DNA from: Lama guanicoe
Lineage: Eukaryota
NCBI GenBank assembly: GCA_013239625.1
Contig: MU053881.1
Coordinates: 13,940,373-14,004,372, forward strand
Length of the DNA stretch: 64,000 bases
Direction of reading: 5' to 3'
Below the pieces are notes generated by a model. The model made no database searches. It worked only from the letters and a program-made list of their open reading frames with translations, and was not told the DNA's origin. A program made the translations under genes and the position numbers. Below, in pieces: positions 30,732-60,052 of this stretch (the first letter of the stretch is position 1; the number at the start of each line of letters is the position of its first letter).

Positions 30732-30745
30732 GTTTCTATGGCAAC
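30732..30745 (+). promoter_or_regulatory. RFX X-box GTTTCTATGGCAAC
   Basis: Matches GTHNYY-AT-RRNAAC; lies 35 bp before the ATG of GCCACCATG. Confidence 0.55.
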
Positions 30746-30780
30746 AGAAGGGCTGTTCTGGGAAGCGAAGACTCGCCACC

Positions 30781-30845
30781 ATGCAGATGGCAGGCTAAGG
30801 GAATGAGAGGGTCTTCATCTCCAGCCTGTGTGATGATACTAGGAG
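30781..30845 (+). pseudogene. Candidate first coding exon of decayed gene (MQMAG*GNERVFISSLCDDTR)
   Basis: Kozak GCCACCATG, donor AG|gtaaat, phase 2 out, in-frame TAA at 30796. Confidence 0.45.
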
Positions 30846-32424
30846 GTAAATCTGCGCACTTTGGGGAGAGCCGCAGGCCAAAGCGCAGAGGGGATAAATG
30901 TCTCCTCCTGTCTTTTGTCATTTTACTTTCCTGAGATAACCAGGGGTTTGGTTCCTTCTAGGGCACAACCTCCGAACAGCTTTACCTTCTCACCTTTGAA
31001 TGTTACTTCATCATACTTGAGAAAGCTTTTAAAGACATAATTGAATGTGTTTTGAAGAAGGTTCACCGACTGGTTCAAGGCGGGAGTTACTTGTGAGGCT
31101 GGCAGGAGAACCCAGTCCTCCTGATTCTGAATTCGATTCTGAATTCAGGACCGTCCCTATCTTGGGGGCACCACATTCTCACAGAATCCCACCTCAGGGC
31201 CCCTCAACTGGTCTGCAAGTGTGTGTTTGGGTATCAGCCTCAACAGAACCCTCTTCCAGGCTTTATGAAACACCAATGACTTGATTTATCTGAGACCGTG
31301 GTCATCACGCTGTTTCTCAGAGATACAGGCTATTTCCCAGGTCTAAACCCTGAAAGGAATCTTATTCATGGTCCTTTAAAAAGGAGCACTGGGCAACTTC
31401 CATCCTGTGTTGGAAACGTCTTTCCCCAAACAGCTGTGTAATTAGTGCCTGGGCATATAACCGTGACTGCACATAGCCTTGTATTTTTCATCTAGGTCAT
31501 GTTTATAAGTCTTAATTCCTCATTTAGTTTTGTAAAGTGTCTTGAGAGTAGGTTGGTGTTACATAACCTCTTTGCCTTTGGGTCTAAAGACAGTTCTGAA
31601 CATAGAAAAGAGCTTAGTTTTACAAAACCCCTTTTCTTTTTTTTAAATCTAACCAAGCAAAAGACAAAAGCCTGCTTAGTTTCCTTTCATAAATAAACAA
31701 GTGCACATATAAATAAATATTCCTCACTTATATGCACATGTGCGTATTTAAGTAGCACATAGCTTGCAATATTTTTGGAGAAGTATTTTGGTGATTCAAC
31801 TGAATCTATCAAACGATGAACTATCAGGTAATTAACAGGCTCTGATAAATGATTGCTAATTAAATTTTATGATAAATGGAGCAGAGCCCATCTATTTTTA
31901 TATTAGGAGGAACCCAGTATGTCTCTGGAATTACTGCAAATCTCTCAAACAAGGTGTACATTTATTTAAGTACCTTCCAAAGGGACTTTCGTTTCAGGGA
32001 CTGCAATTTGCTAAGAGATTGGACTGGGTATTTCCATGGCAAATAAATCCGCTTACATTACACCCAGGCCCAGTAACAGTGTGTGCCCTGAATAATTCAG
32101 TACTATCATTGTGAGGCTCCCAACTCCATAAATGCTGCAGCAGCATAAAGGGTAACACGAAGACAGCACACTCAGGTCCTTTACATTTCTTCCATTTTTG
32201 TTTGTTTGTTTGTTTTTGTCAGCACTCCCTCCTTAGGAGCCTATAGATGGGGGAAATGAAAGAAATGAGTTGCATAACCAAATAAGGATGGGAGATTTGG
32301 GCCAAGAGGATTGAGGTGAAGGAGCTAATTGGAGGGACTGGGACAACGAGCTCAGAGGGGCTAAGTTGCGAACGCAAACACTAGGTATGTACTTGCAGCT
32401 TTCATTTTCCCGAAGCTATTCTAG

Positions 32425-32493
32425 GAGGCTGCAGACGCATGGCAGATGCCTCTGGTACCAGCACAACTCCCTGTGATCCAACGAAGTTCTGAG
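32425..32493 (+). pseudogene. Candidate decayed exon (RLQTHGRCLWYQHNSL*SNEVL)
   Basis: tag|G acceptor, AG|gtgggg donor, phase 2-2, one TGA. Confidence 0.3.
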
Positions 32494-32804
32494 GTGGGGG
32501 AGGAAATAAAGGGAGACAGACAGAAGGGAATCCCCCTTGCATCCCATGTTCTCCATCACCCTTGGCTCCTGGAATTTCCGAAGAAGGGCACCAGACAGCA
32601 GTGACTCCCATTGAGTTTTATAAGGTGGTTAAGATTCCTGCCACTGGGTGCAAAAAGCATGGAGTTGGGGCTGGAACTTGGATTGCTTCGTTCCAATTCC
32701 GGTGCTAGTTTCATAGAAAGATGAAGGACAGATTTTATCTGTTTATCTACCTGGAGACCTACTAGAAGGGGGTCTTGCTGCTATGTGTGTCTGTGTGTTC
32801 TTAA

Positions 32805-33350
32805 CTTGAGCTATAATTGACATATAAAACTGTTAGTTTCAGGTGTACAACATGATTTGATATATGCATATATTGCAAAATGACAACCACCATAGTAAGT
32901 CTAGTTAATATCTATCACCGTACATAGTTACAAAGCAACTTGGCAACTTTCAACGCTGCTATACAGTACAGTTAGCTAAAGTGACCGGGCTGCACATTAC
33001 ATCCCCATGACTGACTCATTTTTTTTTTTAACTGAAAATCTGTTCATTTTTGGCTACCTTCACCTATTTCACTCACCCCCCCACCCCTCCCCACCCCCTC
33101 CTCTGGCAACCAGTCTGTTCTCCGTATCTATGAGCTTGGTTTTTGGTTTGTTTGGATTCCACATATAAGTGAGGTCATATGGCATTTGTCTTCCTCTAGT
33201 CTGACTTATTTCAATTACCATAATATCCTCAAGGTCCATCCATTCTTCTTCTGGCTACATAATATTCCATTGTGTTTATATACACCACATTTTCTTGATC
33301 TGTTCATCCATCAACAGACAGGTTGCTTCTGTGTCTTGGCTTCATTGCCT
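32805..33350 (-). mobile_element. L1 3' end (older subfamily)
   Basis: 'ttgagctataattgacatataa...gattccacatataagtgagg'. Confidence 0.85.
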
Positions 33351-33533
33351 TGTTTAAGGGAGCTAAATATTTCAGTCAAATTGAATTCTGTCACAATCTG
33401 CCGAGCAGCTCTCCTGAGACATCAGGAGGCTGCCCTGGAACTGACTCGTGGGCCATGTTGTCCTCTGCCCTCCGTGAGCCAATGGCCTCAACAGCCATTC
33501 TTCTGACCAGGAGTACTGCCATTTTTTTTTAAG

Positions 33534-33609
33534 GCCCATTTCTCAAAGAAGCAGGGCCTTCTGAAGGAGGAAGACGACCTTCTGAATTATGCAGATCTTG
33601 CTCTTTAAG
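33534..33609 (+). pseudogene. Candidate decayed exon (PISQRSRAF*RRKTTF*IMQILLFK)
   Basis: CTGAC branch plus T9AAG acceptor; weak donor AAG|gtcacg; phase 2-0; both stops are TGA. Confidence 0.3.
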
Positions 33610-33811
33610 GTCACGTAGAGCACAGGGAAGTGTGGTAGGCCAGGTTAGATCGCCCCACGGAACCACCCCACCTGGTACCCTCAGCGTCTCAAGGGTTAGG
33701 GAGAACATAAGTAATGAATGTCATCTAGGATCTTAAAAAATAATTACAAAGGATTCTCCTCATTCCACAAAAGTCCCATATCTCTTTTCATCTTTATTTA
33801 TTTTTTCTTCT

Positions 33812-34068
33812 TAATTTTTTAAATTGAAGTATAGTTGATTTACAATGTTGTGTTTCTGGTGTACAGCATGGAGATTCAGCATAGTTCTATATATTCTCTT
33901 TAACATTCTTTTTCATTATAGGTCATCATAAGCTGTTGACTATGATTCCCTGTGCTGTACACTAGGACCTTTTTTATCTCTTTTATATATAGTAGTGTGT
34001 ATCTGCTAATCTCACACTCTTAATTTATCCCCCTACCCCACTTTCCTTGTTGGCAACCATAGGTTTGT
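33812..34068 (-). mobile_element. L1 3' end abutting an LTR
   Basis: 'aattgaagtatagttgatttacaatgttgtg...ggcaaccataggtttg'. Confidence 0.85.
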
Positions 34069-34071
34069 ACA

Positions 34072-34716
34072 TGTAACCAGTGTCTAGGTTCTAGTCCTGT
34101 CCCAGAAAGAATTCAGAGACAAGAAGACACAGAGGTTAATAAAGTAAAGTGAGGATTTATTAAGGAATGGATAGTATACTCTCAAGGGGAGAGCGAGCAG
34201 GCTCAGGTGAGCGGCTGCCCTGAGTTTCTTTGGTAAGTTGGTTATATACAGTGTAAAAATGAGTGGGCAGAATATTCATTGGGAAGGGAAGAGTTTGGAG
34301 TCCTTTTCCCTGATTTCATCCCAACTGCACCTTCCTGAAGGGAGGAGGGATTTTTGTCCTTATTTAGTGTGGATCGAAGTGTCATGGCGTTGGCGCATGA
34401 TGGGTACTTCTGATCTGCAAAGCTAATTTTATTGAAATGAAAGCATAATGAGCAAAAGGTTACATTTGGACACTGGAGATTCCTGCCTTTTCTCATCTTT
34501 CTTTGTGGGCCTCCAAGCCACTTATCACCCTGAAAGTTGTGACCACTTATCAGCCCAGAGGTTCCTGCTTTTCTTTCTCTGCCCAGGGACCCCTGGTGCC
34601 TACGTGATGTGTGGTTTCTTGCATTTGGCCTGTGCCCCTCCTTTCTGCCCAGTTCCCACAATCGGGCCTGCATCCCCCTTTCTCTGCTCATATCTAGCTG
34701 TCTGCCTGCTCTAACG
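34072..34716 (-). mobile_element. ERV (ERV1-like) solo LTR
   Basis: Minus-strand AATAAA; alignable with 56765-57373; LTR-like terminus 'ttagagcaggcagacagctagatatgag' on the minus strand. Confidence 0.8.
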
Positions 34717-35369
34717 GCCTTCCTGATTGTCTGCACAGGAGTGCCTCTGCTAAAGTCCTCCGAGCCTCCTCTGCTTCCCCATCAGAGCCTTCATCACAGT
34801 GTATTGTGACAGCCTGTCTGTGTCTGACCCCCATCAGACCGTAGGCCATTTGAGGTGAGTGTTTGTATGTCTACCATTCCGTCCCCAGAGCCTCGCACAG
34901 TACCAGGCACCTAGTAGATTTTCAGTTAATACTTAGTAAGTTGTATTCAATGAAGATCAGCTTTCCTAGAGCAGAGGGTGGCAGGTGGGAAATCAGAATG
35001 TTGGGGTCAGAACTAGCAGGGCAGTAAACCTGATAGAAGTTTGGATTTGATTAAGGGTGGGTGTGACAGGGCAGAAGGAGTGCTGGGCAGAAAAATAAAA
35101 GAATAATTAACATCAGACTGTCCTGTGTGCTCCCCTCTCAGCAGAGCAGTGGGGATAAATGGAAGAAAATTAGTGAAGTCATTAGCATGATAACCAGCCT
35201 CTCCTCCCGCTGGGAGCTGGGAGGTATCAGGTAGTCCCTGCTCCCAGCCTGCAAGCCCTTCAGATCACCATCTTTCCCTGCTAGGGCAAGAGTAAGTGAT
35301 GCTCCAAAGCTGCTAGCCCCAGGGTCCTCTCAGAGATGAGGTCTCTGTGGGAGAGACGGAGGGAAAAAG

Positions 35370-35969
35370 AGTTACCTACATTCAGGAACATACACACATT
35401 CATTCTCATGTTCTTCTTCACCATAGGTTGCAAGATTCTGAATATAGTTCCCTGTGCTATACAGTATAAACTTGTTTTTTTTTTTAAATCTATTTTATAT
35501 ATATTAGTATCTGCAAATCTCAAACTCCCAGCTTATCCCTTCCCACCCTCTTCCCCTCCTGGTAACCATAGGTTTCTTTTCTATATTAAATATTCTATGT
35601 CTATGAGTCTGTTTCTGTTTTGTAAATAAGTTTGTCTCTTTTTTTGTTTGTTTTTAGATTGCACATATGAGTGATATCATGTGGTATTTTTCTTTCTCTT
35701 TCTGGCTTACTTCACTTAGAATGATGATCTCCAGGTCCATCCATGTTGCTGCAAATGGCATTATTTTATTATTTTGTATGGCTGAGTAGTATTCCATTGT
35801 ATAAATGTACCACAACTTTTTTATCTAGTCATCTGTCAATGGACATTTAGGTTTTTTCCATGTCTTGGCTGCTATAAATAGTGCTGCTGTGAACACTGGG
35901 CTGCATGTATGTTTTTGAAATAAGAGTTCCCTCTGGATCTTTGCCCAGGAGTGGGATTGCTGGATCATA
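35370..35969 (-). mobile_element. Young L1 3' region lacking its poly(A) end
   Basis: 'ccaggtccatccatgttgctgcaaatggc...gggattgctggatcata'. Confidence 0.9.
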
Positions 35970-38320
35970 CAGACGCCACACTTTGCACAGTTCAGTCAGG
36001 CACCACGCGCAGCTACACTGCTACGCTGTCTGGCACGCCCGTAGGGGAAACACAGGTCTCCATGTGAATAAGCACACGGTTACTGTTGACAACAGGAGTG
36101 CCAACAGCCCCCGAGTTCTTAGGATTATAATAGCTCTCATTTGCAGAGTGCTTGCTCCCTGCCAACCGCTCTTCAGAACATTATAGATACATTATTGTAT
36201 GTAAGTCAAGAATCTGTTCATCCCTTTTCTCCTCTCTTGCTTATGTTGGGAAAATACATATTTTGCCTAAAAATACGTATTGCTCGCTGAGCAGCCAAGC
36301 TTGACCAGGTAACACTTGAGCTAAAATATTGCAGGTAATGCGAGCCCACAGGTTCACACGCAGACACATAAGTACTGAGGGGAGGTGAAGAGGCTGATGT
36401 GATTCCCTGGTCGGGACTGTCCGGCCATCCTGCCTCTGTCCAGCTTGTAAAGACGTGGACAGCAAGAGCTAACTTGTGTTGAGGAACAGCTAAGTTCCAG
36501 GTCACGATCAGCGCTTTGCGGGCCGTGTGCTCCTCCCAGGAGCCCTGTTGCGTAGGTAATATTGAGATCTTTATTTAGAGATGAAGACCAGGCATAAGGC
36601 AATTAAGTAGTTTGCCCAGCTAGGAAGTGGGAACCCCACCCTGCAGTCTAACTCCAGAACCTTTACACCATCAGTCACCACTCTTAGAACTTTCTATAGA
36701 TCCTGAATTTAAGCACCTTTAAAAAAAAAAAAAAACTAGGAATCCATTTCCAGCTTCGTGAGTATTAAGGAAGTACTGACAGGGAGCAGCCAGGCTGCCA
36801 CCTTGTCAGGCATGTGACAGAGACTCCTGAAGCCATGACTGGGCTTGCTCTGCAGCCTGCGAAAGGAGGTAACAGGAAGGATGTTAAAACTGCATCAAGG
36901 TTTCTGTGATGCTTCATTTGCAGTGGACCATCAAACGGTTGGGTGTTAAGCATTCCTCGTAATGGGAAAGAGCAGATTCATGTTATCACAAGTTTTCCAT
37001 TTACTTGAGAAGGTGCTCTGTGGCTCTGGGCCCTCGACAGCTCTGAGAAGCCCACTCGCAATGCAGATGATAAAATGCATGTGGGCCTGTGAGAGCCTGT
37101 CCACCAAGGCCTGCTGGAAGCCGAGGACCACGTGTGAGTCCTCCGGTGCCTGTCACAGATCCAGCATCACTGCTTTCAGAACAGGGACAGGCTTGCCCAA
37201 GTCCCAGCTTCTCAACTTAGGAACTTCCAAGTCGCCATACCAGGTTCTGGTCTTGGGTGTGACGCCAACAAGCTTTGTAGCCCTGAGCAATTGGACCCTC
37301 TGAGTCTCGGCTTTCCTGTCTGTCAAATACGAGGTTTAGACTGGTTGTCGAAGGTGCCTTCCCCTTAGAATGTCACATGGCAAATAAAAAGCCTCTCAGC
37401 CATTCGCTGCTGTTGTTGGTAATTACTTGTATTATTAATTTTTGAGGCAAGGTAGTTGATCTACTGGGTTCTTGGCTTTAAGGGGGCAGATGTGTTCTGG
37501 CCACAATTCTATCTCCAGGGTCCAACAGTGCTTGACAGAGTGGGTGTTTAGTAAATGTTCATGGACGACAGTTGGATGGGTCCAGTTTCTCTTGTGAACC
37601 CAATGCTGCCTTCCATGGGCCCATCGCGTGCTATTACATGCACCTGTCGGACAGCTGTAGACGTGTGCACCTGCATATGAAGTGTGTCCACGCTCACTGC
37701 TGTTGACAAACTCCTGAAACTTACACAGTGGGTCCCCTGAGCTGTGTGACTTTGTGTCCTTGTTCCTTTTATGGTTCATTCATCAACATGTCTTTGCAGT
37801 AACAGTGTCCGTTTCCATCTCTCAGAATGTTCCAGATTATTGACCAGTCAGTTAGCTAATGACTGATCGGTGCCAGGGCCCTCTGACAGGTGCTATAGGT
37901 AAAGAATAGGAAGAACTAGGCACTGCCATCAAGAGGTCTATGGCTATTTGGGAAAAGAAAAGATCCCCTCATTTCTCTCTGTCACCTTCAGGTCTTGCCC
38001 TTGTTGCTTCTTTATTTTCCTCTGTCATGAACCCTATTCCTTTCCCCAGAGCAGACTTCAAAAGTAGGTTCTACTCTGCCATTCTTTACCTCCTCTGCCT
38101 GGCACGTCTCTATTTTCTGGGAACTTTGAGAGACTAGTTCTTACCCCCATGTTGGCCACAATCTCTCTGGTTGCTGAGTGTTTGATAGCTAGGGCGTCAC
38201 AAAGAACCCTAACGTGGAGAGTGGTGAATTCGTTTCTCTAAGGTTATGCAGCAAATCAGTCTAAGGTCGCAAGATGTCAGGGCTCACTCAGTCAGTACTC
38301 TTCAACTCTCCTGCCCACAG

Positions 38321-38493
38321 GAATTTTTCTTGGAAGTCAACATCCATCTGAGGTGCTACGAGACAAAGAGACTTTCTTTGTTTCTTGCAAAAAAAAAAAA
38401 AAAAAAAGATCTTTTTCTAGAATTTTTGCCATGCACTTAAAAGTGGCAAAAAGACTTCTGTAAAACTAACATTTGATTTTGGATTCCAACTAC
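38321..38493 (+). pseudogene. Candidate decayed exon (EFFLEVNIHLRCYETKRLSLFLA[K]nDLFLEFLPCT*...)
   Basis: Strong acceptor 'ctctcctgcccacag'; phase 0 frame open ~39 codons; internal A tract; donor uncertain. Confidence 0.35.
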
Positions 38494-38730
38494 GTAAACA
38501 GTAATGTGCTCATTAGTTAGTTCTCTCATTAAACCCTTTGGGACATGACTTCGTGTCTTGACTCCTTTAAGGGTGAGTGGAAGCAGGTGCATTTTGGAGC
38601 TAGTCCAGTAAATGTGGGCTTTGATCATGGTTCTGTTATTCACTGGCCACATGACTTTGGGCAAGTTAAACTCAATGAATATTTTCTTCATCGACAAAAT
38701 GTGGGTCCTTTATTTAAAGGACTTATCAGC

Positions 38731-38892
38731 AGGGAGGGTATAGTTCAAGTGGTAGAGCGCATATGCTTAGCACGCATGAGGTGCTGGGTTCAATCCCCAG
38801 TACCGACTCTAAAAATAAATAAACCTAATTCCCTCCCCTGCCCTGCCGAAATAAGAAAAAAAATTAAATAATACAGTAATCAAGAAATGAAA
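38731..38892 (+). mobile_element. Vic-1-like SINE inserted in a MIR
   Basis: 'gggagggtatagttcaagtggtagagcgc...ggttcaatccccagtacc'; degenerate TSD. Confidence 0.9.
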
Positions 38893-39337
38893 TAGAGGGC
38901 TTACCTCATGTGGTTGCTGAGAAAATTAAGTGTGGTGGAGTCAATAAAACAGAATACTTAGCAGGTAATAGGAGCTCGATAACCGATCTGAATTAAGTTC
39001 ACCAGTTTATTGGTCTCCTGCTGTGTACGAGGCCCTGCTGGGGGATGCAGAGTAAGCTGACCCAGCTGACCCATTCATTCCCAAAGCAGCTGCTAAATAT
39101 GTACTTAACATCCAGTCCCCACACTTCCAAGTCTCAGCTCAATTGTCTCTACTGAGAGAATTTCCCTTTCCTCATATCTAAAAGCACATCACTTAGTGTA
39201 TTTTTTTCCCAGTATGACAATCATTGGTTTGAGTGTTTATTGGCTGCTCCTTCCCCCTAAGCTTGAGGGTGGGACTTTGCCTGTTCATTGGCAACTCCCC
39301 AACACTCAGGCCAATGCTTGGAACCAAGTAGGCACTC

Positions 39338-40053
39338 TTTTTTTTTTTTTTTTTGAATTGAAGTACAGTTGATTTGCAATGTTGTGTTAGTTTCTATTTG
39401 TGTTAGAATCACTGTGTAAGGCATAGTGATTCAATTATACACTTTTTTTCATATTCTTTTTCATTATAGGTTATTATGAGATATTGGGTGCAGTTCCTTG
39501 TGCTATACAGTAGGACCTTGTTGTTTATCTCTTTTATACCTAGTAGTTAGTATCTGCAGATCTCAAACTCCTAATTTATGTCTCCCACCCTTTCCCCTTT
39601 GGTAACCATAAATTTGTTTTCTATGCCTGTGAGTCTATTTCTGGTTTGTAAATAAGTTCATTTGTATTTTTTTTTTTAGATTCCACATGTAAATGATATA
39701 ATATGGTATTTGTCTTTCTCTGTCTGACTTTCTTAGTATGATCATTTCTATGTCCATCCATATTGCTACAAATGGCATTTCATTTTTTATGGCTGAGTAG
39801 TGTTCCATTATATATATACACCACAACTTCTGCATGCAGTCATCTGTCAATGGGCATTTAGGTTGCTTCTATGCCTTGGCTATTGTAAATAGTGCTGCTA
39901 TGAACATTGGGGTGCATGTATCTTTTTGAATTAGAGTTTTCTCAGGATATATGCCCAGGAGCAGAATTGCCGGATCATATGATAACACTACTTTTATAAG
40001 GAATCTCCATACTGTCTTCAAAACTGGCTGCACCAGATTACATTTCCATCAAT
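39338..40053 (-). mobile_element. Young L1 3' end with poly(A)
   Basis: T tract then L1 3' UTR/ORF2 tail ('EMPFVAIWMDIEMIIL'). Confidence 0.9.
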
Positions 40054-40206
40054 AGCAGACGCTGTATTTTTAATCAAATGAATGAATGAATCCTAGCTGC
40101 AGGGGATACACTGAAAAACAGACGTAGGTCTTGCCTTGATCTGATTCACAACCAAGTTAGAAAACATAAGGACCTTTCAGTTATATTATTAAAAACCTCT
40201 CTATTC

Positions 40207-40400
40207 CTTTTTTTTTTTTGAATTGAAGTACAGTCAGTTACAGTGCGTCCATTTCTCATGTACAGCACAATGTCCCAGTCATGCATATACATACATATAT
40301 TTGTTTTCATATTCTTTTTCAAAGTTATTACAAGATATTGAGTATAGTTCCCTGTGCTATACAGAAGAAATTTGTTGTTTTTTTTTTAATCTATATATGA
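40207..40400 (-). mobile_element. Young L1 3' end with TSD
   Basis: Flanked by aaaacctctctattcc / aaaccccctctatttc. Confidence 0.85.
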
Positions 40401-43400
40401 AACCCCCTCTATTTCTGTTCAGACTATCCATTTTCTTCCTCAGGGCAAAAATTGGGTTCTATAAGGTCAATAGGTATGGAAGTGCTGAGCCCAGAAGAGA
40501 AAGGGAAGAGTTAGTTGGGGGTGTGGGACATGGGGAAAGTCTCTGGTAGAAAGTGGTACATCAAAGTGCATAATGTTGCCAAAGCATTCCCAGGGTGGAG
40601 CCCCTCTGTTTATCTGTGGTCACTCCTAGGAAGAAAGCTCCCAGTCTGAGCAGAGAAAGGAGTTTTGTTTCAGACATGTCTTGATTGGCATCTCTGCTAC
40701 TTTCCTAAAATCCTGGAACAACCGCATGACATCGCTCTTTGGAGAGAGGAGATGACACTCACCAGTTAGAACCAAGGTTCAAAGGAAACAAAGAAAACTA
40801 AATCCCTCTGCTCTGAAAGGATTGATACCTTTTAAAGAGCATTCCTGTACTTCCGTATGTGGCACAAGTAATACATGTTCATCATGAATATTTAAGAAAA
40901 TGCAGATAAGCAAAAAGAAAGCATGTATGATTCACCATTGCATGATGCAGATGACGATGGATACATTTTGGTGTGTATGCTTCTAATTTACTATATACAC
41001 ATGCCCGGACCATAGAGGACCTAATGATTGAACGTGTTTCTTATGCTTTACAGTATGTGATGGTCGTTTAATATACTCTGCCACCTTATTTTTTAGAAAC
41101 AGAATACTTCATCTAATGGAGACATCACATGCAGTAATAGCTGTGTAAAGAGAAAAGGGAAATTTGGGGAGATCATGAAGGGGATTGAGTCTGGAAGTTA
41201 AGAGCTCAGACACTGGAGGTGTCCCAGGTTCAAATCCTGGTTCTGCATTTGCAGGAGCTAGGACATCCATGAGCCCCTGAACCTGTCACAGTGTCGTTTT
41301 GCTCATCTGTGAAATAGGAATAGTGATGGCAAACTGTTCCCAGTGATGGTTTTAAGGATAAAATAAAAAAAACGGAAGTAAGGAAGTTGGCCATACAGTG
41401 TTCCACAAAGGTGAATTTATTTTCGTATTTTAAAAGAGACTAGAACAAGAAAAGAAAGGAAAAGTTAGTGGAGGAAAAAAAGGAAAGAAAAGGAAAATAT
41501 GCAGGGTGAAGAGATACCTTGTCTGTGAACTGGAGGCTGCAAGATGGGGGTGCGTCTCGGGAGAGGGGAAGTCCGTGGCTGTGTGGGAAATGGTGCATTT
41601 TCTGCAGGAGCTGCTGGTCTGTATTTAAGCTCCTCACTGCTTTAGGCAAAAACAGCTGAATTACCTCACAACCTGCATCTGGCCTGGGCTGGAAAGCTTC
41701 CCTCTGGGAGTGCTGGTGTCCTGGGGGGGTCTTGGCCTCTCCGCCCTCAGAAAGGGGCACCCCCTTGAGGATGGAGATGAGGTGCCGAGGGCAACAGTGG
41801 TCCCCACACTGTTCTTTCTCTCCCACGTCTGCAGTGAGGACCTCACCAGTGCCCCGAGGCAGAATTCCCAGAACAAGAGGCAGGTGTTGACTCCACCTTC
41901 AGAAACTTCGATTCTGACCTCACCAGCCAGAGAAAAGTCACGCCTGCCCTTTTGTCGTGGTGGTGACTGGTGTCTCCCCTCTAATTTTACTGCTCTGAAA
42001 AGTTTTATTGAGGTGTAATTGCCCTACAATAAACCACACACATTTAAACCGCACGATGTAGGTCGTGATGTATGTATACACTTGTGAAACCATCACCACA
42101 GACGATGTAATGAGCATATTTGTCACCCCCACCAGCCTTCCCGTGCCCCTACCTAGCCCCTCCCACCAACCCTTTATACATAAATACATTCTTATTCCCC
42201 ATCTTCTCATTTTCAATAATTAGACAATTTGATGTTATATCCTTGTGGTTCCTATTTCTTGGGAGTGGGTACTCACAATATTCTCAGTATTCCTTTAAAA
42301 ACTGTGAACCCCCCCCCCCACACACACCATGTCTAAGCTGCTTCTGCAAAGGCAGCTGCATCACTCTGTATATGTTAATGCAAATGGGAAAGCTTTTATA
42401 CTGATTCTTACTATCATTTTCAATTTCTCTGGGGAATTGGAAGTAAGGCTCACAGGGGATGCTTTTGGCTCTGAGATGGGAGAGAAACTGTGGCTTCATT
42501 TATTTAACAAACAGGAGCCTTTCTCTATCTGGATGCTTTGTGTGTGAACAAGGAGGGCAGAAGAGACCAGGTTGCTTGCCTTCTGATGCTCACAGCTCAA
42601 AAAGGGGGACCGACCCCCCTCCAGGTAACCAGACATTTGTGAAGGAAAACAAAGCATGCAGTGACAAAAAACTGGGGCTCTGTTTTCCTTTCCAATGGAA
42701 AGCATAAGGCATGGCCTGTCTGAATGAAAGCAGTTAACTAAGTTGATAGCCATTTCTTTCTTACCCCAAAGCTTGGGGAGGCCCTGGAGATGAGGTCAGA
42801 AGCTGGGTCATCAGCAAGCGCTAAGGACCTGGGGCAGGAAAAAATTAGGGCCTCGTGGGAACAGCACCCCTGCAGGGCTGGAACACAAAAGAAATGGAGA
42901 AAGGCTGGAGAATACAGCTGAGGGTTGGCAGGGGCCAGATCAGAGTCCACTAAGGCCTGGGAAGAAGTTTAGATTTTATTCTAAATGCAAGGAGAAGCCA
43001 TAGGGAGGTCTGAATCAGAGAAGTGCCACATATGATTCTTCAAAGATTGCTTCTCACAAAAGACACAAAAATGAAGAAAATGCTAACTTTCTGGTTGAAA
43101 CAAACAATTAGAATCATAAGAATAGTGATAATTACTTTAAATAATTATAATGATGACATGCTGTCTATACTGTGGCACCTCAGCTTGGAGAAAAGCAAGA
43201 TGAGCTTAAAGATGCAGCCTGGGTCAGACTGGGCAGAGCCCTGTTGGCCACACTCTGGATTTTGATTCTAGTCCTCAGAAGAGTAAAAATCACCCCCTCT
43301 CCTGCCAAACTCACACCCTGTGTCTCTCCATGCCCTGCCCTGCATTTCCTGTCCTCATAGCTCTTACCACTCCTGACATATCTTTGTTTGCTGTCTGTCT

Positions 43401-44035: not shown

Positions 44036-44200
44036 CAGATCTTGTCAACTATTGGTTGATAATAGCAACTCAGATTTATTGTGGCAAAAGGTTACTGTGT
44101 TCGGAGTCTTGTAACAGACCATTCCATACAACCAACTCAGCAACACCTTTAATAGGATTCCTATTTCACTATTTCCAGGAACACCTCCATCTCAAAAATA
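44036..44200 (+). pseudogene. Candidate decayed exon, 165 nt (one open frame: DLVNYWLIIATQIYCGKRLL...)
   Basis: 'tttttttcccccacag' acceptor, A|gtatgt donor; reading frame ambiguous. Confidence 0.3.
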
Positions 44201-46947: not shown

Positions 46948-47084
46948 ATACTTTCTTCAACAGCCTATGAATCATCCCATCAGCGGGGATGAAAACAACT
47001 TCCACAAAGCCACTGGGGATCTTCTCTGGTCCCCCAGGAGAGCTTTCAGTGTCAGGCTGATGCCCTTCCGAGAACAAAGACATG
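46948..47084 (+). pseudogene. Candidate decayed exon (YFLQQPMNHPISGDENNFHKATGDLLWSPRRAFSVRLMPFREQRH)
   Basis: Pyrimidine tract plus cag; open frame; non-canonical G|gcatgt donor. Confidence 0.3.
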
Positions 47085-47913
47085 GCATGTTTTTTCTCTC
47101 GTTCATTCAGGCTGGATCCCTGCCCAAAGGGGATTTTTATAACTTCCCTTGCCACCACCACCCAGGACTTCTATTTTCATGATTCCTCTAAATTGGGAAT
47201 CAATACAATGGATCCAAAGTTTAGCCAAGGTGACAGTAAGCTCCACCTCCCCCTGACTTGTTCACGGAGTTGGGTGAGGGAGGAGGGGAGCGATCAGGCA
47301 GCCCTGCAGACGCATCTGGAGAGAAGACAGACACACTCTAAGGAGTGTTTTCTCTAATTTCCTGCCTATTCAGACTCCACGGTCCCCATCTGGGCCGTGC
47401 AGGGTGCTACCTTCCTTGTTAGGATCACCATGCGCTCCTCACATCCACCCTCCTGATTAAAACAGGGAGAGCTGAGAACAATCAGGGCTTTGCAATTCTC
47501 CTTCCCAGCTCATCTCTTTTCTCTGTTTACTTATTCATTCAGTTACATATTCATTTATTCAACAAATACTGATTAATGACCTCCCTTTTTATACACTCTG
47601 CCTATTCCCAAAAGGATCAGGGGTGGCTGGTGGGATGCAACATAATGCAAAACAGGGATGTCAGGGATAAAAACAGAAAGGAAGGGGGAGGCCTTGCCAC
47701 CAGCTCCAGTGGTAGTTGGAATTCGGCCCTGGCTCTTTTCCAGCAAGAGAGATTTGTCAGATTTCTGGGATTTTGCTTTCTGCCCAACCGAAACTTGCAC
47801 ATTTGTGTCCAGAGAATAACATTCTCCTGCAACTAAATACATTTCTTGAGCGTCCAGTGGAATGCTTTGTTCTTATATGCAAATGCCTTCAGTATAAATG
47901 AAAGAATTTATTC

Positions 47914-50234: not shown

Positions 50235-50367
50235 GGGGTTTTGGGGGAAAGTAATTGGGTTTATTTATTTTTATTTATTTATTTTTTTAACATACATCCT
50301 AGGGATTGAACCCAGGACCTCATGCATGCTAGGCACGTGCTCTACCACTGAGCTATACCCTCCCCCC
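50235..50367 (-). mobile_element. Vic-1-like SINE with TSD AATTCTGT
   Basis: Reverse complement of 'ggggagggtatagctcagtggtagagcac...ggttcaatccc'; TSD 50227-50234 / 50368-50375. Confidence 0.9.
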
Positions 50368-50399
50368 AATTCTGTAATCCTTTACGTAGTGTCTATCAC

Positions 50400-51650
50400 C
50401 TTTCTGTCATAAAGAATGATAAAATTAGTGTATTTTCTCTTTTTTATTCTTCCACCTAATTTCAATTTCTAGTATTATCTTTGCTAGTTTGCTTCATTGT
50501 GCTCTGTTACCCCTCTGGTGCTCAGTTCATCATTCTCAACTATAAAATTTGAGAGAATCACTGAATTTATATCACATGTCCCCATGTATCCCTCTTCTCC
50601 TCCAACTTTGGTCAAGGTTAATAAAACGTATGTTCTGCTGTGAAACCATTTTCCCTGTGTGACATTGAGCCTCAGTCCTGTAGTTAGATATGTTCAGTCC
50701 TCACTGTGAGTCTTTTTGATGTAATTTTTAGAATCATATATGGCTGGGCTGGAGTTTTCCCTCTAGTAGACTTTTCAGTAAAGACTCTTTTGGAAACAAT
50801 ACTCCCTACATTCTTGCATGCTCAACATTGTTGGGCTGAGCATAATATTCTCAAGCCATGTTTTCTGTCCCTGAGGATTTAATAGGCAATGCTGTCTGCC
50901 TGTCAGCCTTGATTGAAGCTCTCTTTCCAGCTTACCCAGGACTGGAGTTGTTTCTCCTTTGGTGCTCAATGGATTCTCCCTTTATCTTTGACATCCAGTA
51001 ACTTTACCAGGGTATATCATAATGTTGCCCACTCTGGATGACTTCTTTTGTGGAATACAGGGTGTTCTTTAAAACTTCATATTCAGGTCTTTCTCTACAT
51101 CTGAGAAATTTTCTTTAAGTAATTCTTAACATTTGCTTTAGTTGCCTACTTCCCTTTTTTTTGGTCAAGGGCTCCAATTATACACATGTTGGCTAACCCA
51201 TCTGTCTTTGATACCAGTGATTCCTCTCACTAATCCTTTTGAACTTGCTTTCCCCACTCCAGTATTCTGTGGTTTTCTGCATGTACAGCAGTTTTTGTTC
51301 CCCCTTGTGTTGCTTCCCAGTTCAGATTCATTTTTGTGTTGGCTTCAGTTTTCTCTTCCATTTATTTTCCTTAGACCAACCAGCTCTCTTACTTCTTTTC
51401 CTTCTATATTCTGACACTTCTCTAGGCCCTAGAGTTGTGATCTGATCTCTGGATTTTAGTGCTGATTGCTTCATGAGGTAGTTTTGTTGTGTGGTTCTCA
51501 CACTGGAAAGTTGGCACAATTTTATCTTCTGCCTGGCGGTATTTTTGTTGATTTTGTTGACACAGTCTCTGTCTATAAAAGTGACAACTTTTATGCTGTT
51601 TTCTTTGTGATTACTCATTTTTGAATAAGATTCCTTGTGTCTGTGCCAGT
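50400..51650 (-). mobile_element. Ancient degraded L1M/HAL1-like sequence
   Basis: T-rich, with old L1 antisense motifs. Confidence 0.4.
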
Positions 51651-53060
51651 TATTTGCAGGAGGTTTTTATGGAGGAGGTGCTAGGAAGAATTTTAAATAG
51701 AAGGTTTTGTGAGTAGTATTGTTCAGAATTTTTTTCCAACTGAAAAAAAAATAGGCAATTATAGGACTATTTTACTGTCCCACAGACACTCTTTCCTTGA
51801 AATTAGGCATTTGTGTGCTTTTTTTTAAAGTGAAGTCCTACTGTTTCAGCTTATCTTAACCAAACTGGGAGTGAGGGTGAGATGATAAATGATAATAGCC
51901 TAGGAGGTTAATTAGATTGTCCTAGGCTCATATTGGTAGGGGAAAATGAGAGCTATTGGTTATGATATTTGAGTTTACAGTTGGGTTGAGTAGAGTTCAG
52001 CAATAACAATAACTGTCATTGAGTATTTATTCTGCCAGATCTGTGTATACACACACATGAGATACAGATATATGTAGAGTGAGAAAATTTATACCCATCC
52101 TGTAAAATAGGTTTATTTTGCTTGTTTGTAAGAAGAAACCAAGGCTAAGAGATTAAGTAGTTTTACATGGTCATACAACCAGGAAAACATGGCAGTAGTG
52201 ATATTAGAACCAGGTCTGTGTGAGTGAATTTCAATGCAGATTGATAGCCTCGCTCCCTCCCTAGTGGTTGGTACATGTTTAACCCTTACAGAAATCACTT
52301 GGCTTCCCTGTTTAATTAGTGCAGTGGCATAACTGTAGATGGGGTTGGTACTAACATGTCCCTGGCTTCATCCACTCCTGAGGGCCCCAATCTTGATTCT
52401 CTTCATCTGCCTAAGTACAGTGGGATGAACTCCAGGATTCTCACCGAGTATTCCTGAGAACTCTAAGCCATGGCTAATGTGTAATCCCAGTAAATCCTGG
52501 TCCTCACCAATTTGTAAGTCTTAGAAAAAGTCACTCACCTTCCCAAAGCTTAGGGTAGGATCATGGAGTTGATTTGTCAAGGGGAGAAACTTTTCTTTAT
52601 AAATTTATGATAATCCAACCTTTCACTTCCAGATGAGAGAGGTATAGTTAATGCCTTTTTTTTTAGAATAATTACAGCAAAAAATTTAAGATGGTGTGTT
52701 TTCATATTGCAATATAAATTTGTTCCTCATCATATGCTCATATGCCTTTGAATGAGGTTGTTGGAAAAGATGCATGGCCTTGATGGGGTTTGTGTGGTTT
52801 TTGTCTTTGTCTTACGAAAATCATAAAGTTCATAGCTATGTACAGAAAGGGAAATGAAGTAAATACTCATTGTGAACCCTGTGATGATGTTGACTTATAA
52901 ATTTAAATGTGAGAAAAAGTAAATGGGGTCAAATGAAATGTAGTTTCCCCTGAGAAAATAACCAAGATGTTCAAAGTTGATTGGGAAGCCAGAAGAATTG
53001 AGGCAAAAAGTCAAACAGGCACTGACTTTTTGTGTAAAATTCATAACTCTTCCACCCCAG

Positions 53061-53245
53061 ATGTGGCAATGGTCCAGCACCTTCTCTTGATGATGGAAGG
53101 TGGTGGTTGTTTTTGTACAGAAGCTTCAGAGGATGGCCAGGCATGTCTGTGCAAACCAGGCTCAAGGCCCCTCCAGTCTGTGATGCCCAGGACTTGGTCA
53201 GCTTTGACAGTTCTCAGGGATATCACCCCTTAGCTCTGGTAAATG
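53061..53245 (+). pseudogene. Candidate decayed exon (...CDAQDLVSFDSSQGYHPLALVN)
   Basis: 'ctcttccaccccag' acceptor, G|gtatgt donor, one frame open throughout, phase 1 out. Confidence 0.45.
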
Positions 53246-53503
53246 GTATGTGTGCAGTGAAATGAGAAGTCCAGGCCATCAGGTGCACTTGAGAACCTCT
53301 AATATGAGGAGTAAAATAACCATATACCTTGAGTTCTAAGATGCCATCAATTATGCACTGCTTTATAAATTAAGTAATAGCATTTGGAGATTAAAATATT
53401 TCACTAAAGGTATCTCACATAGCAAGGGTACAACGCACCACAATTTCATTTTAAAATGTGAAAAAGAAATTTTTTTAAATCTAACTTATTTTTTAATTTA
53501 CAG

Positions 53504-54169
53504 GAAGATTAAAACTTAGCATATTGTGTCCAAATACTTATACCATGAGTTTTGTTCAAAAAGTACATCGCCTTTAGGAGACCAAGTCCTTGGAGGACAG
53601 TTGACTGTCATCTCTCATCATCTTCCTTGTGAAGAAGACCAGGAGCAAGGGAGGATCATCCACACTGTAAACTCAGCAGCATATATAAACCAAAGAGTAG
53701 TAGGAATTTGCTCTTATGAAACGAATTTGAATGGATCCTTTCCACAGAATTTCCCAGAGGAAATAAAAGCTACGAAGGATAGTGGGCTATTAATCACTGC
53801 TGAGGTTGATGGAAAATCAAACATGGGCCTGTCGTCCTATTCTTCAGCCTAGTTCAAAGGTAGTTCCAATGTAGAATTGTGGGGAGGGCCATTTATCAAC
53901 AAGCAAGTCTCCATCTGACGTTAGTGATGTGATTGCATAGGTGGGATTCACACCCTGCCAGGCACCAAAAGTCCAGGCAGACCCTGGAAATCAGAAACTA
54001 GACTCAAATCAATAGGAAATACAGAAGACAAAGTGAAGGAGACAACTAATGGAAGAGGCAAGGACGTGAGAGCAAGAAATGAGGGTTGCTAACTATTGAG
54101 GGAGTGGTAGAACAAAGAAAAATTCTGGAGTTCAGTAAGATTTTGGAAGACTTTCCCAAAGATCTTTGG
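53504..54169 (+). pseudogene. Large decayed exon, 666 nt, with stops and frameshifts (ends ...EQRKILEFSKILEDFPKDLW)
   Basis: CTAAC branch point 53481-85, T-rich tract, cag; TGG|gtaaga donor; 108-codon open stretch; repeat-free. Confidence 0.55.
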
Positions 54170-56000
54170 GTAAGAGTGTCCCTTGCAAGTATTGGGTGCC
54201 TGAGATGTTCTTCCTGTTGAGGCACAGTCGGAGACACCTTCACATCTGATACTTCTGCCTCCACCATGCTGTTTAGGAAAAGCATCAAGGAAACATCTCA
54301 CTGGATGAATCAAATCTTTGAGTCTCATGAAAATGTCACACCGTGGTACTCAGAGCCTTCTGCCCTTGGACCAAAGTCCCAGGAGACACTGTGTATACCA
54401 CTATTTATAACTATGGATTGAATGTTCCAGCCTTTAGCCAAACCATGTTGTTAAAGATGACACCTAAGTTTTTGGAGTCCATCCTCCATTACCTTTTCCT
54501 TCCCTATCTTTGATAATAGAAGAATATTAAAAGGTGATAGAAATAGGCATAGATTTATTGGGGCTCCTGTCAGTGAGTGAATATTAATTTGGAATTTATG
54601 GCCCTTAGACACATCCATACAGAGAGCTTAAGAAATCTTAGAACGTTTTTAGAGGGGTTCTCAGTCTAGTCCGTACACCTATGGTAACTCTATGTATGTC
54701 TACTGCCAACTTATGTAAAACAATCAAATTTGATTTAAAAGGGTCGGAGGAGAGAATGAAGTTCCTTTCTCTGGTCAATCCATTGACAAGTATTTATTGA
54801 TTCCTTACTCTAAGCTCAGGATGGGGATGCAAAAGTCTATGCAAGAAGCCAGGTGCAATTCCTGAAGAAAAGTTAAATTCCAGTTGCAGAGAATACTATG
54901 CGACAGCTTATGTTCCAAGCAATCTGTAATTAGCAGTGAAATTATATTGGTGATGATAAAGAATCCAAAAGGAGGTGGACCAATGAGAATAAAGAAATTT
55001 GGGAAGGCTTCGTGGAGAAAATGTAAAAGATAACGTCGACGAATAAAAACCAGCATTCCACAATCGTGCGTGTGTGTTCTCATGTTGGGGTTGGAACTAC
55101 AGCAGATGCTGTTTCTGTTCTTACTTTATTTTATTGCCCACACACAAGTTATTTTATGATGACTCATAACAATGGGCGATCTTGATTCAGGGTTCAAAGA
55201 GTACCACACACTCCGCCTGCATTACCTATGAATTAGGTGGTAGTTGTCCTTCGCACTGTAGGTGGGGTCATTAAGTCATAAAGGGGTAAAGTAACTTGAC
55301 TAAGAAGCCAGCTAGTAAAAAGCCAGTCTTTGAAACCAGAAATGTTGAATTTAAAAGCCGTAGTTTCTAAGCAGGATCATACACTACATCTTTGGTCTCC
55401 ACCGAAATTAGGGGACAATTTCTTAAGAATTTGTGCTGCATGTAGGTCGTGGATTTTCCTCCAAAGTGACATTACAGAAACCTAATTTTACCAGACTACA
55501 CAATTCCAGCTATATCATGAAATTTTCAAAGACATTATAACCAAAGTTCATATGAATTGAAATTAAAAAGAATAATGCAAGCTCCCCCTTCCCCTGCCCG
55601 CAGTGTTAGGAGTTGGGGAAATTGGTGCTGTGGAATCCCAAAGAGCAAACAGTAGGCCACTTTGGGAACTGGGGCATTCAAAAAGTCAAACACTGAAAGC
55701 CAAAAATACGGAAAGTTCATTTTGTCTTTTAACTCGGACTTCATGACACGTGTGACGCTGACAGTCTGTGGTGATACAAGGTGATAAGAAGGTGGTAACA
55801 GTGACCTTGGCACAGATCAGGCTAACAGTTACATATGTGCAAAGGATGGGAATGAGCATTCATTGAATGCCAGATGCTGTGCTAAGAATAGAAAACGTTT
55901 TATGTTAAGAGTGTGTATAAAAGCAATTATCATGATGTAAGCCACAGTGAATCAATCTTTCATCTCCTGAAATGAGATTTTTCTTTCTTTGTCATTACAG

Positions 56001-56067
56001 ATACTGACCCAGATTATTTAAAAGAAGAAAAGCAACACCATTTCCATTGTTGATCTTCCTTTGTTTG
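56001..56067 (+). pseudogene. Decayed exon (ILTQII*KKKSNTISIVDLPLF)
   Basis: 'ttctttctttgtcattacag' acceptor, TTG|gtaagt donor, phase 0-1. Confidence 0.6.
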
Positions 56068-56229
56068 GTAAGTTTCCGTTCTTAGATATTTCCTTCCATG
56101 AAGTTTTGCTTTCAAAATACGATTATAATATATATTTGTTGCTTGCGTCTCTTTAGAATCCCTGACTTCCTTCTAACTAGATAACCCTCTTTTCTTGTGA
56201 ATAATATATTCAATGTGGTTAAAACACCC

Positions 56230-56540
56230 GGCCACCGCGTATGTATGTGGCCTGCTTGGGGACACATACCCAATCCAAAGTGAACCAGTCAGAGGTTTTT
56301 CTGGGACTTTGGCCAAAAAAAAAAAAAAAAGAAAAAGAAATGTGTTGTGAAAGATTTGGTAATGAGGCTTTTAGGCTGAGTCAGTCTGTGTGTGTCTGGA
56401 GCTTCCAAAGGCCATCTGGGCCACCACGTGGAGAAAGCCAGCCTAAAACACACAAGGAGAGAGCTAGTGAATTGTTGGAGCCCTTGGATCTCTGAACGTT
56501 CCAGTTCTGTGAGCAAGTATGTTTCCCTTTTTGCTAACAT
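56230..56540 (+). mobile_element. MLT1J/H-like LTR fragment
   Basis: 'gagcccttggatc...ccagttctgtgagcaagtatgtttccc'. Confidence 0.55.
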
Positions 56541-56764
56541 AGCTGGGTAGAAATACAGTGATCATGGTGACCTCACTGCGACAGTGCGAAGTGGCGGAAG
56601 TACACTGGGTGAAAAGTTGTAAGATATTCCCGGCAGTGACCTTGACTCATGACCCTCAAGCAAACTGCTAATTCTTCCTGAGTCTGTCTCCTTTATCAGT
56701 GATATGCTAACATTGGATCCCTTAAAACCTGAGGCCCTATTTTATCTTCGCTTGTTTTTCCAAG

Positions 56765-57373
56765 TTTTGTGGGCGAGAGGTTCTTGTCTTGTTGCAGAAA
56801 GAATACAGAAATAAGACACGGAGGTTAAGAAAGCAAAGCAAGGATTTATTAAGGGATAGATAGTACGCTCTCAAGGAAAGAGCGGGCAGACCTGGGTGGG
56901 TGGCTGCCCCGAGCTTCCTTGGCAAGCTCGTTATGTGAGTGCAAAATGGGCAGAATATTCATTGGTGCGGAGGGGTTTGGGGTCATCTTTCCTGATCTTC
57001 ATCCCAGCCCCACCTTCCCAGGTGGGGAGGGGAGGGATTTTTTTGTCCTTGTTTAGTCTTGATTGGGAAGTTGCATGAACTCATAAAGAACAAAAGGTTA
57101 CTTTCAGAGGGGGATATTATAAGCGAAAGGTTACATTTGGACAGAGGTCATAATGATCGAAAAGTTACATTCCAATGGTGAGGGTTCCTGTCCTGCCCGC
57201 CATTCTGCCTCCAGGACCCTTGTCAACCCAGAAGGTATGTTTTTTTTATCAGTCCAGAGGATCCTGTTTTTCTTGGTTTGTCCAAGGACCCCCATTGTTC
57301 TCAAGATGTATGGTTTTCTGCCATTTGGCCCTTGTCCCCCTTTCTCATATCTAGCTACCTGCCTGCTTTAACA
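56765..57373 (-). mobile_element. ERV (ERV1-like) solo LTR, probable TSD CAAG
   Basis: Related to 34072-34716; caag on both flanks; ends ...taaca. Confidence 0.8.
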
Positions 57374-59605
57374 CAAGTTCCATTGCTTAAACTCTGTAAA
57401 TTCTTAGTTATCTCTCCCCTAGAAGTCATAGGGTGTGGTAAGGCACACACATACTGCTGTTCAGTACATCTAGCTAATGCAAGGTCTTCATTTCTAGATG
57501 AAGATCACATTTCTCTCTTCCCAGGTCTCACTCCACCTCTGTCTCAAGCAGCTACCTTGCAAATACGTGTTATTAGACAACTTTAGAGCCTGCACAACAG
57601 TTCATGTTTGGCTCTGAGAAAATCCATCCCTTCTACCAGGAAAGTCAACTTGAGTACTCGTATTTGATGGAGAGAAAATTGTGCACAAAAGCCACTATGC
57701 AATGTCTCTTACTTAGTCTTTATCCTTTATAGTCGTAGAATGCCTGTTCCAATCAGTGACGGCTACACAAACGCCTAGTGCAAACTCCCAATTCTTCGGA
57801 AAAGGGGATTCTTACCCGTGACACTCCAGCATAAACATGTGTGTGCTAATCCACTGAGACTAGAAATTCCACTTTAAACTAGCAGCTGTATCATAATTCT
57901 GCTGAATGTTCTGTACTATTTGTCATTTACCTCCCAAACCAAGTCAGAAGTATTACATATGGAGATCGGCATGTCTTTGGATTTCCATGCGTACAGATTA
58001 TTAAAACTGAACAATTTTAGAAAATCCTGAGATCCTCCCTCCTGACATTCTGCTGTGTGGCAAGTTGCTCAGGAAAAGTCCCAGTTCTTGGTATCCCAAA
58101 ATACAGATTAAGCCTCACACAAAAACCAAGAACTTACTTGAAAAGTAAAAGATGTCATTATTATTTATTGGCTACCGACATAACAAGACCAGTGGTATAG
58201 TGAGTTCTCCTAGTCAGCTCCTGTTATATCTACCTGTCAACTGACTTAACTGCTGGTGTACCCAGATATTAACAGATGGGGTTCACTAAGTGTTAATAGC
58301 CACTGTATGTAAACTCTGTAGATACTTACATAGCCAGCCATTTATAACTCTCATAACATCCTAGACATACACAGAGATATTTATGTGACTTGTAAGTCGT
58401 TTTTTATCTTATTAGCCTAGACTTGTTAAGACTGCCTCCTTAACAATTCATTTTCTGGGACCCTCTAGTTGATTGGCCATGTAAGCAGAGAGAATTTGGA
58501 AACCTAATAGGCTATGTCAGAGAGTTGGACAATCTCTAAAACTTGCAACTTTCAACTTCTAAAATTCTCCCCTAAATCTGATCAGTGATGTACTGAAATT
58601 AAACATGCTTGCAAAACTTTATGCAGTTTCTCTTTTCACAATTACACTCAAGGAGAGACCTTTTGCTCTCATTTAGAATAAACCTTGAAAGTTAGGTCTG
58701 TTGTGCGTGCGATGATCCAGTGGGAGCAGCTCTGGGCTGGGACGCTCCTGGCCTGTGTCGCTTCTCTGTGCCTGGACTATGAAGGCAGCCTCCTGCTTGT
58801 TCCTGCCGCTATAACTCCCCTTAGTGATTCATTCTAACTGACACCAAATGGGCTTTTGAAATTGACAGGCTGGCAGGTGTCGCCAGATCACCATCCCAGT
58901 TGCAAACCCCCCATTGGCTGCTTCTTGGAATTAATAATGAGAGCAGTAATAACATTAATGATTGGGAGCCAATGCTAACTAGATTTACTCTGTGCTAGGC
59001 TCTATGTGATGGAGTGTACATTTTCTTTTAATCTTAAAAATAACTCTCTGAAAGTTCATGATTGTGGGAACTGAAGCCCAAAGACATCAAATGACTTATC
59101 CAAGATCATATGGCTAGTGTGTGATGGAGCTAAGACGCAATCTCACATCTGTCTGACTTCAGTTGATACTCTCAGCCATGATACTACCCTGCCTTTTCTT
59201 CTCAGTGAAAGACAGGCTCCTTGGCCAGTCTTTCCTCAAATGGAAACCTTTCATTTGTTCTCACAAATCTCTTGTTACTCTTTAATATACACCCTCTTCC
59301 CCAGCTCAGTTTTCTCTTTGTTTTGTTTTGTTTTTTTTTTTAAGTCATATTCCATCTTTCAGTTCATTGGTTTTTCCATTTCTCCCAACTTTTCCACTTT
59401 GGCTCTTTTCACCTTTATGTACTGTACCCATTCTTGTCATCCTTAGTCATTCAGTGAACAGGTCATTATTATTAAGCACCTGCTAATTGGTTATTATCCC
59501 TGTCTTCCATAAATTCATTGACTAGTGGGGGCATCAAATATAGGGTAGGATGGGGGCCGTTCCAGAATAGAAGTAGCTGAAAAGATGAAAATGTTTCTAT
59601 TTCAG

Positions 59606-59678
59606 TGCCTAATGCTTCAAAAACTATCAGTGAAGACTCAAAGTCCTCATCACTTCATTAGATCTCCTACCTTCAGGG
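59606..59678 (+). pseudogene. Decayed exon (PNASKTISEDSKSSSLH*ISYLQG)
   Basis: 'tttctatttcag' acceptor, GG|gtgaat donor, phase 1-2. Confidence 0.45.
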
Positions 59679-59992
59679 GTGAATAATCTTATTTCTCTCC
59701 AGTAATTTATAAGCTTTTTGAGCATAAAATAAAACCTTATGTTTCTTTTGTATCACTTTGCCTTAGGAAACCCACTTACAAGTTTTAAGTGCTACCTACC
59801 TTTGCTAGAGAATTTCTTGGTGGCATGTCTGTGTTAAGTAACATGAATGTCTCTATCTGGAAATACACTTTCCAATATATTGAAGGTTATTGTGCTGAAG
59901 GATACAGGCACTAGAGTAGAAACCAGGAATTTAAGGATCAAGACTAAGAGCCTCTGATGGACGTGTGCCATCTGATAAATATCCTCTCTCAG

Positions 59993-60052
59993 GATAGAAG
60001 TGACAATTTTTGCCTTTTGGGCTTCACAGAACTATTGTCTTAAGCTAATTAG
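59993..60052 (+). pseudogene. Exon (IEVTIFAFWASQNYCLKLI)
   Basis: 'cctctctcag' acceptor, AG|gtaagt donor, 60 nt, phase 2-2, open. Confidence 0.55.

Follow-up and report, generated by a model that had tools for sequence, protein, structure and literature searches.

A probable decayed multi-exon gene behind a perfect RFX X-box in a 64-kb stretch of the Lama guanicoe genome

The DNA considered here is a stretch of 64,000 nucleotides from Lama guanicoe (NCBI GenBank assembly GCA_013239625.1, contig MU053881.1, positions 13,940,373 to 14,004,372 of the forward strand), referred to below as the window; all coordinates are positions in it. Between 30732 and 60052 its plus strand carries an X-box followed by a candidate chain of exons, which on balance is probably the relic of an old coding gene, unprocessed and by now decayed: a unitary pseudogene, or a "gene with lost coding potential" (GLCP). 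The window is mammalian in character, with tRNA-derived short repeats, ends that we take to be L1-like, and a lack of long open frames except in low-complexity DNA.

The chain opens with a perfect RFX X-box, for which one exact match is found in the 64 kb against 0.01 expected, and a match in one of 100 shuffles. The X-box lies 30 nt upstream of the sole plus-strand GCCRCCATG of the window, which is followed in turn by a donor within the top 1.1%. The motif GCCRCCATG occurs twice on both strands together against 0.85 expected; it is its position that matters, not its count. From the sequence, this cluster of X-box, Kozak ATG, and donor is far above chance and looks like a real first exon. Functional X-boxes of validated RFX targets lie within 500 bp of start sites, as section 9 of PMC5838959 has it, and an exact X-box directly before a candidate first exon likens the locus to the RFX targets of cilia and spermiogenesis treated in PMC5838959, PMC4745085, and PMC4498915; unlike those, the X-box of the window is known from sequence alone, and by itself it is no proof of a ciliary role. 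A second X-box-like site with one mismatch at 62810-62823 (plus strand) is within chance. The X-box exon might also be an alternative promoter or an untranslated exon of a neighbouring gene, with the remainder being intron; this is improbable, as it would leave unexplained both the long open frame and the frame agreement found in the 666-nt segment described below.

Downstream of the X-box, the initial annotation had listed about 11 repeat-free segments bounded by acceptors and donors. To this set were added an end at 38572 for the segment starting at 38321 and three segments chosen by eye (40674-40854, 44036-44200, and 46948-47229). The completed chain has 12 segments and 2,138 nt, from the ATG to 60052. 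Splice sites were ranked with a crude splice matrix, against a background of 4,623 AGs and 3,612 GTs.

30732-30745, plus strand: perfect RFX X-box, pattern GTTNCYATRGNAAC; likely promoter element
30775-30845, plus strand: candidate for the first coding exon, with Kozak GCCACCATG and its ATG at 30781; GT donor (top 1.1%); one stop when read from the ATG; out phase 2
32425-32493, plus strand: candidate exon 2, 69 nt; one stop if read 2-2, stop-free if read 0-0; acceptor top 14%, donor top 2.6%; without independent support
33534-33609, plus strand: candidate exon 3, 76 nt; two stops if read 2-0, one, at its end, if read 0-1; acceptor top 3%, donor top 17%; without independent support
38321-38572, plus strand: candidate exon 4, 252 nt; 0-0, four stops; acceptor top 0.7%, donor top 0.5%
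40674-40854, plus strand: candidate exon 5, 181 nt, chosen by eye; 0-1, two stops; acceptor top 47%, donor top 33%; weakest member
44036-44200, plus strand: candidate exon 6, 165 nt (162 from a tandem AG at 44039), chosen by eye; 1-1, no stops; acceptor top 0.5%, donor top 10%
46948-47229, plus strand: candidate exon 7, 282 nt, chosen by eye; 1-1, two stops; acceptor top 0.5%, donor top 3.6%
53061-53245, plus strand: candidate exon 8, 185 nt; a single stop-free frame of 61 codons, out phase 1; the junction with exon 7 needs a frameshift or a missed exon
53504-54169, plus strand: large candidate exon, 666 nt; open frame of 110 codons (53520-53849); two or more frameshifts; the sole segment with relatives
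56001-56067, plus strand: candidate exon, 67 nt; 0-1, one stop; acceptor top 0.1%, donor top 0.7%; strongest splice pair
59606-59678, plus strand: candidate exon, 73 nt; 1-2, one stop; acceptor top 12.5%, donor top 6.4%; weak sites
59993-60052, plus strand: candidate exon, 60 nt; 2-2, no stops; acceptor top 5.2%, donor top 0.1%

The eight acceptors of the original list fall within the top 0.1-14% of all AGs and its eight donors within the top 0.1-17% of all GTs. All eight fully listed segments end at a GT, and an AG precedes the seven internal ones as well as 38321; the exception to the claimed boundaries is 30781, which is an ATG and has no acceptor. Freedom from repeats is borne out for all 12 segments in terms of recurrence within the window, judged without a repeat library, such recurring repeats making up 9.8% of 30-61 kb. 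The phases given for the 3' run hold for 53061-53245, 56001-56067, 59606-59678, and 59993-60052, and the four segments of the 5' run do join in phase, with 1, 1, 2, and 4 stops. In 53504-54169 the AG and GT ends stand, but the entry frame, the 110-codon open frame, and the exit frame all differ, so that at least two frameshifts are needed there in addition to the frameshift or missed exon at 53061. The frame of candidate exons 2 and 3 is unsettled, because another frame has fewer stops there than the ATG-phased one. The model is without a terminal exon, since 59993-60052 closes with a donor; downstream of 60052 the plus strand holds no AATAAA and three ATTAAA. A run of 19 A at 38389-38407 within candidate exon 4 is likely an expansion that post-dates the loss of coding.

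The 666-nt segment is the most informative part of the chain. An open frame as long as its 110 codons was reached by 0.9% of 5,000 shuffles (P = 0.009). When this segment, with stops written as X, was scanned against 1.84 billion proteins, four matches were obtained, three of which are short, unnamed, homologous open reading frames (ORFs) of 68-73 amino acids, from Logan/ENA contigs and in clusters of five, four, and two members; P0002, P0004, and P0016 are relatives of this kind. They would be gene calls on the DNA of other mammals. The stretch 53553-53693 matches P0004 and P0016 at 54-57% and 53964-54089 matches P0002 at 79%; relative to P0005 and P0016, the window differs by an in-frame gap of some 11-14 codons. 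In P0004, NAYTMS stands in frame with CSKST, and in P0016 MS is likewise in frame with CSKST, while in the window NTYTMS follows the frame of the phase-1 acceptor and CSKST is displaced by one frame. Sequence comparison with these two relatives thus shows the window to have lost one base near 53550, and their agreement implies that the older frame started in the phase which the acceptor sets and the only open frame of exon 8 supplies, a coincidence expected by chance in one of three cases. P0002 runs through three of the window's frames one after another, and its end coincides with the end of the window frame, so that the stop after 54089 is common to both. The longest contigs of the five members of the P0002 cluster measure 1,913-2,388 nt, near the 2,138 nt of the model, and could be spliced transcripts or genomic pieces with repeat boundaries. 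The fourth match, P0003, pointed to an NBR1-type immunoglobulin repeat (PF16158; E = 1.2e-7, summed over four stretches of a bacterial-type repeat protein), and was rejected as repeat-inflated, crossing three stops, and lying off the frame of P0002.

Could the 666-nt segment instead be coding sequence left over, in worn form, from an ancient transposon or retrovirus? Interspersed repeats are plentiful in the window, and old elements are possible in a sequence judged without a repeat library. The segment is, on the other hand, single-copy in the window and flanked by AG and GT, it hits no Pfam transposon family and has no matches among viral contigs, and its relatives form three small clusters of two to five members each, where a high-copy family would be expected to give many. 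Such an origin is therefore regarded as quite improbable. The same AG and GT around the homologous stretch, together with segments spread over 29 kb, bear out the earlier statement that the structure is not a retrocopy, since the intronless form of a processed pseudogene is not what is found.

The lesions are scattered, as had been claimed: in the assembly sequence, 14 stops fall within 422 codons, with frameshifts in the 185- and 666-nt segments besides, and the 2,138-nt model as a whole has 28-41 stops per frame. A living gene with breaks due to assembly errors or very recent lesions, for which the intact splice dinucleotides and X-box might speak, would hardly carry such a load; its relatives are also broken, the end of P0002 is that of the window frame, and the 1.84-billion-protein scan should have picked up an intact close relative if the library includes one. 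This explanation is highly improbable.

The search for an ancestral protein gave no name. Collinear homology to one vertebrate protein, by which the initial annotation was to be checked, was not found in the library scan with the 666-nt segment or in weak word searches of proteins up to 2,000 amino acids, and the scan, made with that segment only, gave no intact protein for it. None of 265 candidates was confirmed for P0001 against longer proteins, and none of 1,381 at E <= 10 for the stacked-exon alignment A4, a poor profile made of five unrelated exon peptides; alignment A1 against shorter proteins covered the range of 30-36 amino acids only and was uninformative. Pfam assigned no family to seven of seven and six of six pieces, and only three sub-threshold matches (E 0.1-0.17) to nine further ones. 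In the PDB, the EGF modules of EMR2/CD97 (E 1.1 and 4.3) were hit by an alternative frame of exon 8 and dismissed as chance; these aside, the candidate exon peptides had no match there, and no usable one in Atlas. Of the pattern matches among metagenome contigs, none of 117 and none of 595 could be confirmed, and likewise none of 17 among viral contigs. These negatives are weak for distant orthologues, because the sensitive scan used a single, probably fast-evolving exon; they are firmer against an intact close relative if the library includes mammalian annotations.

Two leads to an identity were followed. A likeness to meckelin/TMEM67 was dropped, being without Pfam support. Short motifs in candidate exons 4 and 6, with patterns like R-L-x-x-F-L-x-x-D and L-V-x-Y-W-L, bear some likeness to the N-terminal part of RGS22/RGSL1; the tool tests gave this no support. 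RGS-type domains were detected neither in Pfam nor in the PDB (E <= 10) or Atlas, with single broken exons of 39-93 amino acids as queries of low power. The motif match moreover demands that the A run be collapsed and several lesions be undone. Such likeness is cheap, because a strong-looking exon candidate at 60826-60887, which overlaps what we take to be a MER20 DNA transposon, gives upon translation an equally RGS-looking motif. An RGS22-like identity, taken alone, is thus a doubtful lead. In its favour, apart from the motifs, the X-box would suit a radial-spoke gene; unlike RGS22 and RGSL1, which are multi-RGS-domain proteins of testis and cilia, the candidate exons have no RGS domain detectable with Pfam or in the PDB. 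According to PMC13443885 and PMC11779644, RGS22 belongs to the radial spoke and has four non-canonical RGS domains, and the latter has it modelled in the bovine sperm axoneme (PDB 9FQR).

A number of results weigh against a coding past altogether. In an automatic search for chains of 11 phase-compatible, stop-poor exons of 55-300 nt, made in four 30-kb blocks with the crude matrices, the best chain scored 112.8 in the same block and strand and 92.6, 101.7, and 104.3 in three control blocks, versus 56.3 for the 11 internal exons of the model. Since chance chains outscore the model in all four blocks, the phase fit of hand-picked exons, on which the initial annotation had leaned, is no evidence; an exon-intron structure with AG, GT, and phases is present, yet chance chains match it. 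Frames and three exons were selected by eye, and the window holds 103 open frames of at least 90 amino acids. In favour of a coding past, the ten segments left after omission of the two frameshifted ones (185 and 666 nt) have their 14 stops where 21.6 are expected from the local background and 24.3 from shuffles (P = 0.015), a deficit that is weakened by the hand-picked frames. Relatives were found for only one of the 12 segments, and short homologous ORFs would be expected from any old unique mammalian DNA. Substitutions relative to P0002 have a mean BLOSUM score of -0.44 versus -0.45 for the neutral expectation (P = 0.52; 9 of 42 positions differ), and those relative to P0016 one of -0.10 versus -0.55 (P = 0.11; 20 of 47 differ), i.e., only slightly conservative. 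Finally, no intact protein was found in the library scan with the 666-nt segment, the word searches, Pfam, the PDB, or Atlas.

The main competing explanation is that the locus is old unique mammalian DNA that was never coding, in which the first exon of a long non-coding RNA (lncRNA) may be real and RFX-driven, and that the downstream "exons" are chance AG/GT pairs. The chance chains, the neutral substitution pattern, and the lack of any matching protein family agree with it, and most conserved mammalian lncRNAs are derived from non-coding DNA, as concluded in PMC5577775. It does less well with the perfect Kozak ATG beside the X-box, the 110-codon frame, the fit of the relatives' frame to the acceptor phase, and the stop deficit, and is considered possible, though rather unlikely. 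The decayed gene thus remains the preferred interpretation, with the X-box/Kozak/donor cluster and the relatives' fit to the splice-set frame added to the original proposal, and with its phase argument and its lineage-specific loss given up.

As to the latter, the gene had been thought to be lost in this lineage. The relatives look unconstrained too (in the P0002 cluster, 8 of 73 positions vary, e.g., L/P, G/R, and E/K), and P0002 has a stop in common with the window; the loss would therefore be older, and the former wording is too narrow. If it was ever coding, the gene was, judged by these ORFs, probably already dead in the lineages of P0002, P0004, and P0016, and its loss would predate the camelid line. 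Detection is confined to relatives of a certain kind, as a search of protein libraries finds same-frame ORFs only.

In the proposed course of events, an RFX factor would have bound the X-box and driven transcription in ciliated or sperm-forming cells. The RNA would have been spliced over about 12 or more exons to give an mRNA of at least 700 codons. Coding would have been lost before the split from the lineages behind the three relatives, and the DNA would have been drifting neutrally since. The full protein is no longer encodable. If the X-box still works, a spliced non-coding RNA has about an even chance of being the putative present-day product. Words sampled from 52900-60200 were found at shares of 0.15-0.18 in four RNA runs (X1-X4) of one study labelled as reproductive system metagenome, of 0.07-0.08 in X5-X8 (possible RNA), and of 0.75-0.84 in six other runs; with the five candidate exons making up 14% of that region, these shares are a lead only, and no evidence of expression, tissue, or splicing. 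Two related elements resembling long terminal repeats (LTRs), at 34086-34630 and 56778-57330, lie in putative introns (found by self-match; the LTR label was given by eye). Some sites in them score strongly as splice sites, one pair (34587-34854) being the best of all in 30-64 kb, and the elements could serve as an exon source for a present-day putative RNA.

A continuum from unprocessed pseudogene to lncRNA is described in PMC5577775 (Hezroni et al. 2017), where 491 human unprocessed pseudogenes are traced to genes with lost coding potential. The candidate would resemble these GLCP-derived lncRNAs and unitary pseudogenes as a putative intron-retaining relic with scattered lesions and a surviving promoter-like element, but differs in that each case of that study is based on another vertebrate's syntenic coding gene, and none was identified for the window. 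In the four supplements of PMC5577775, "RGS", "ATP10B", "PTTG1", and "GABRB2" were not found, and entries given there by Ensembl identifier only could include the locus unrecognised. A published description of such a relic at this locus was not found either, which is weak evidence, a nameless gene being hard to search by. It is conceivable, if speculative, that the locus goes back to an RFX-driven gene of cilia or sperm that has not been described, possibly for a third axonemal protein of the RGS22/RGSL1 type; that this gene was lost early in placentals but persists intact in certain other vertebrates; and that its relic still yields a spliced non-coding RNA in camelid testis. Should the decayed-gene reading be true, the known losses of old mammalian genes would gain one with a promoter of the cilia/sperm type, non-placental vertebrates could offer an intact orthologue for study, and the transition from gene to lncRNA could be examined at this locus as a test case. 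As the class itself is already well known (PMC5577775), an unnamed member is of moderate interest.

Elsewhere in the window, an assembly gap of 279 N with a T run on either side occupies 246-524. A full-length SNORA18 match lies at 2028-2156 on the plus strand (101.2 bits against a gathering score of 70); no host-gene exons are evident nearby, and it is probably a retrocopy. Four matches to the tRNA model (15485-15543, 19781-19852, 38734-38808, and 50299-50355) are by their context presumably the heads of tRNA-derived short interspersed elements and not tRNA genes. The sequence at 22591-22886 is a long AC/AT tandem array with sub-threshold mir-297 matches and several spurious open frames; mir-146 was not found in the window. 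The peak of GC and CpG content in the window is at 16001-18000 (GC 0.57, 67 CpG in 2 kb), with a GCC repeat near 16065, and is a possible promoter or enhancer.

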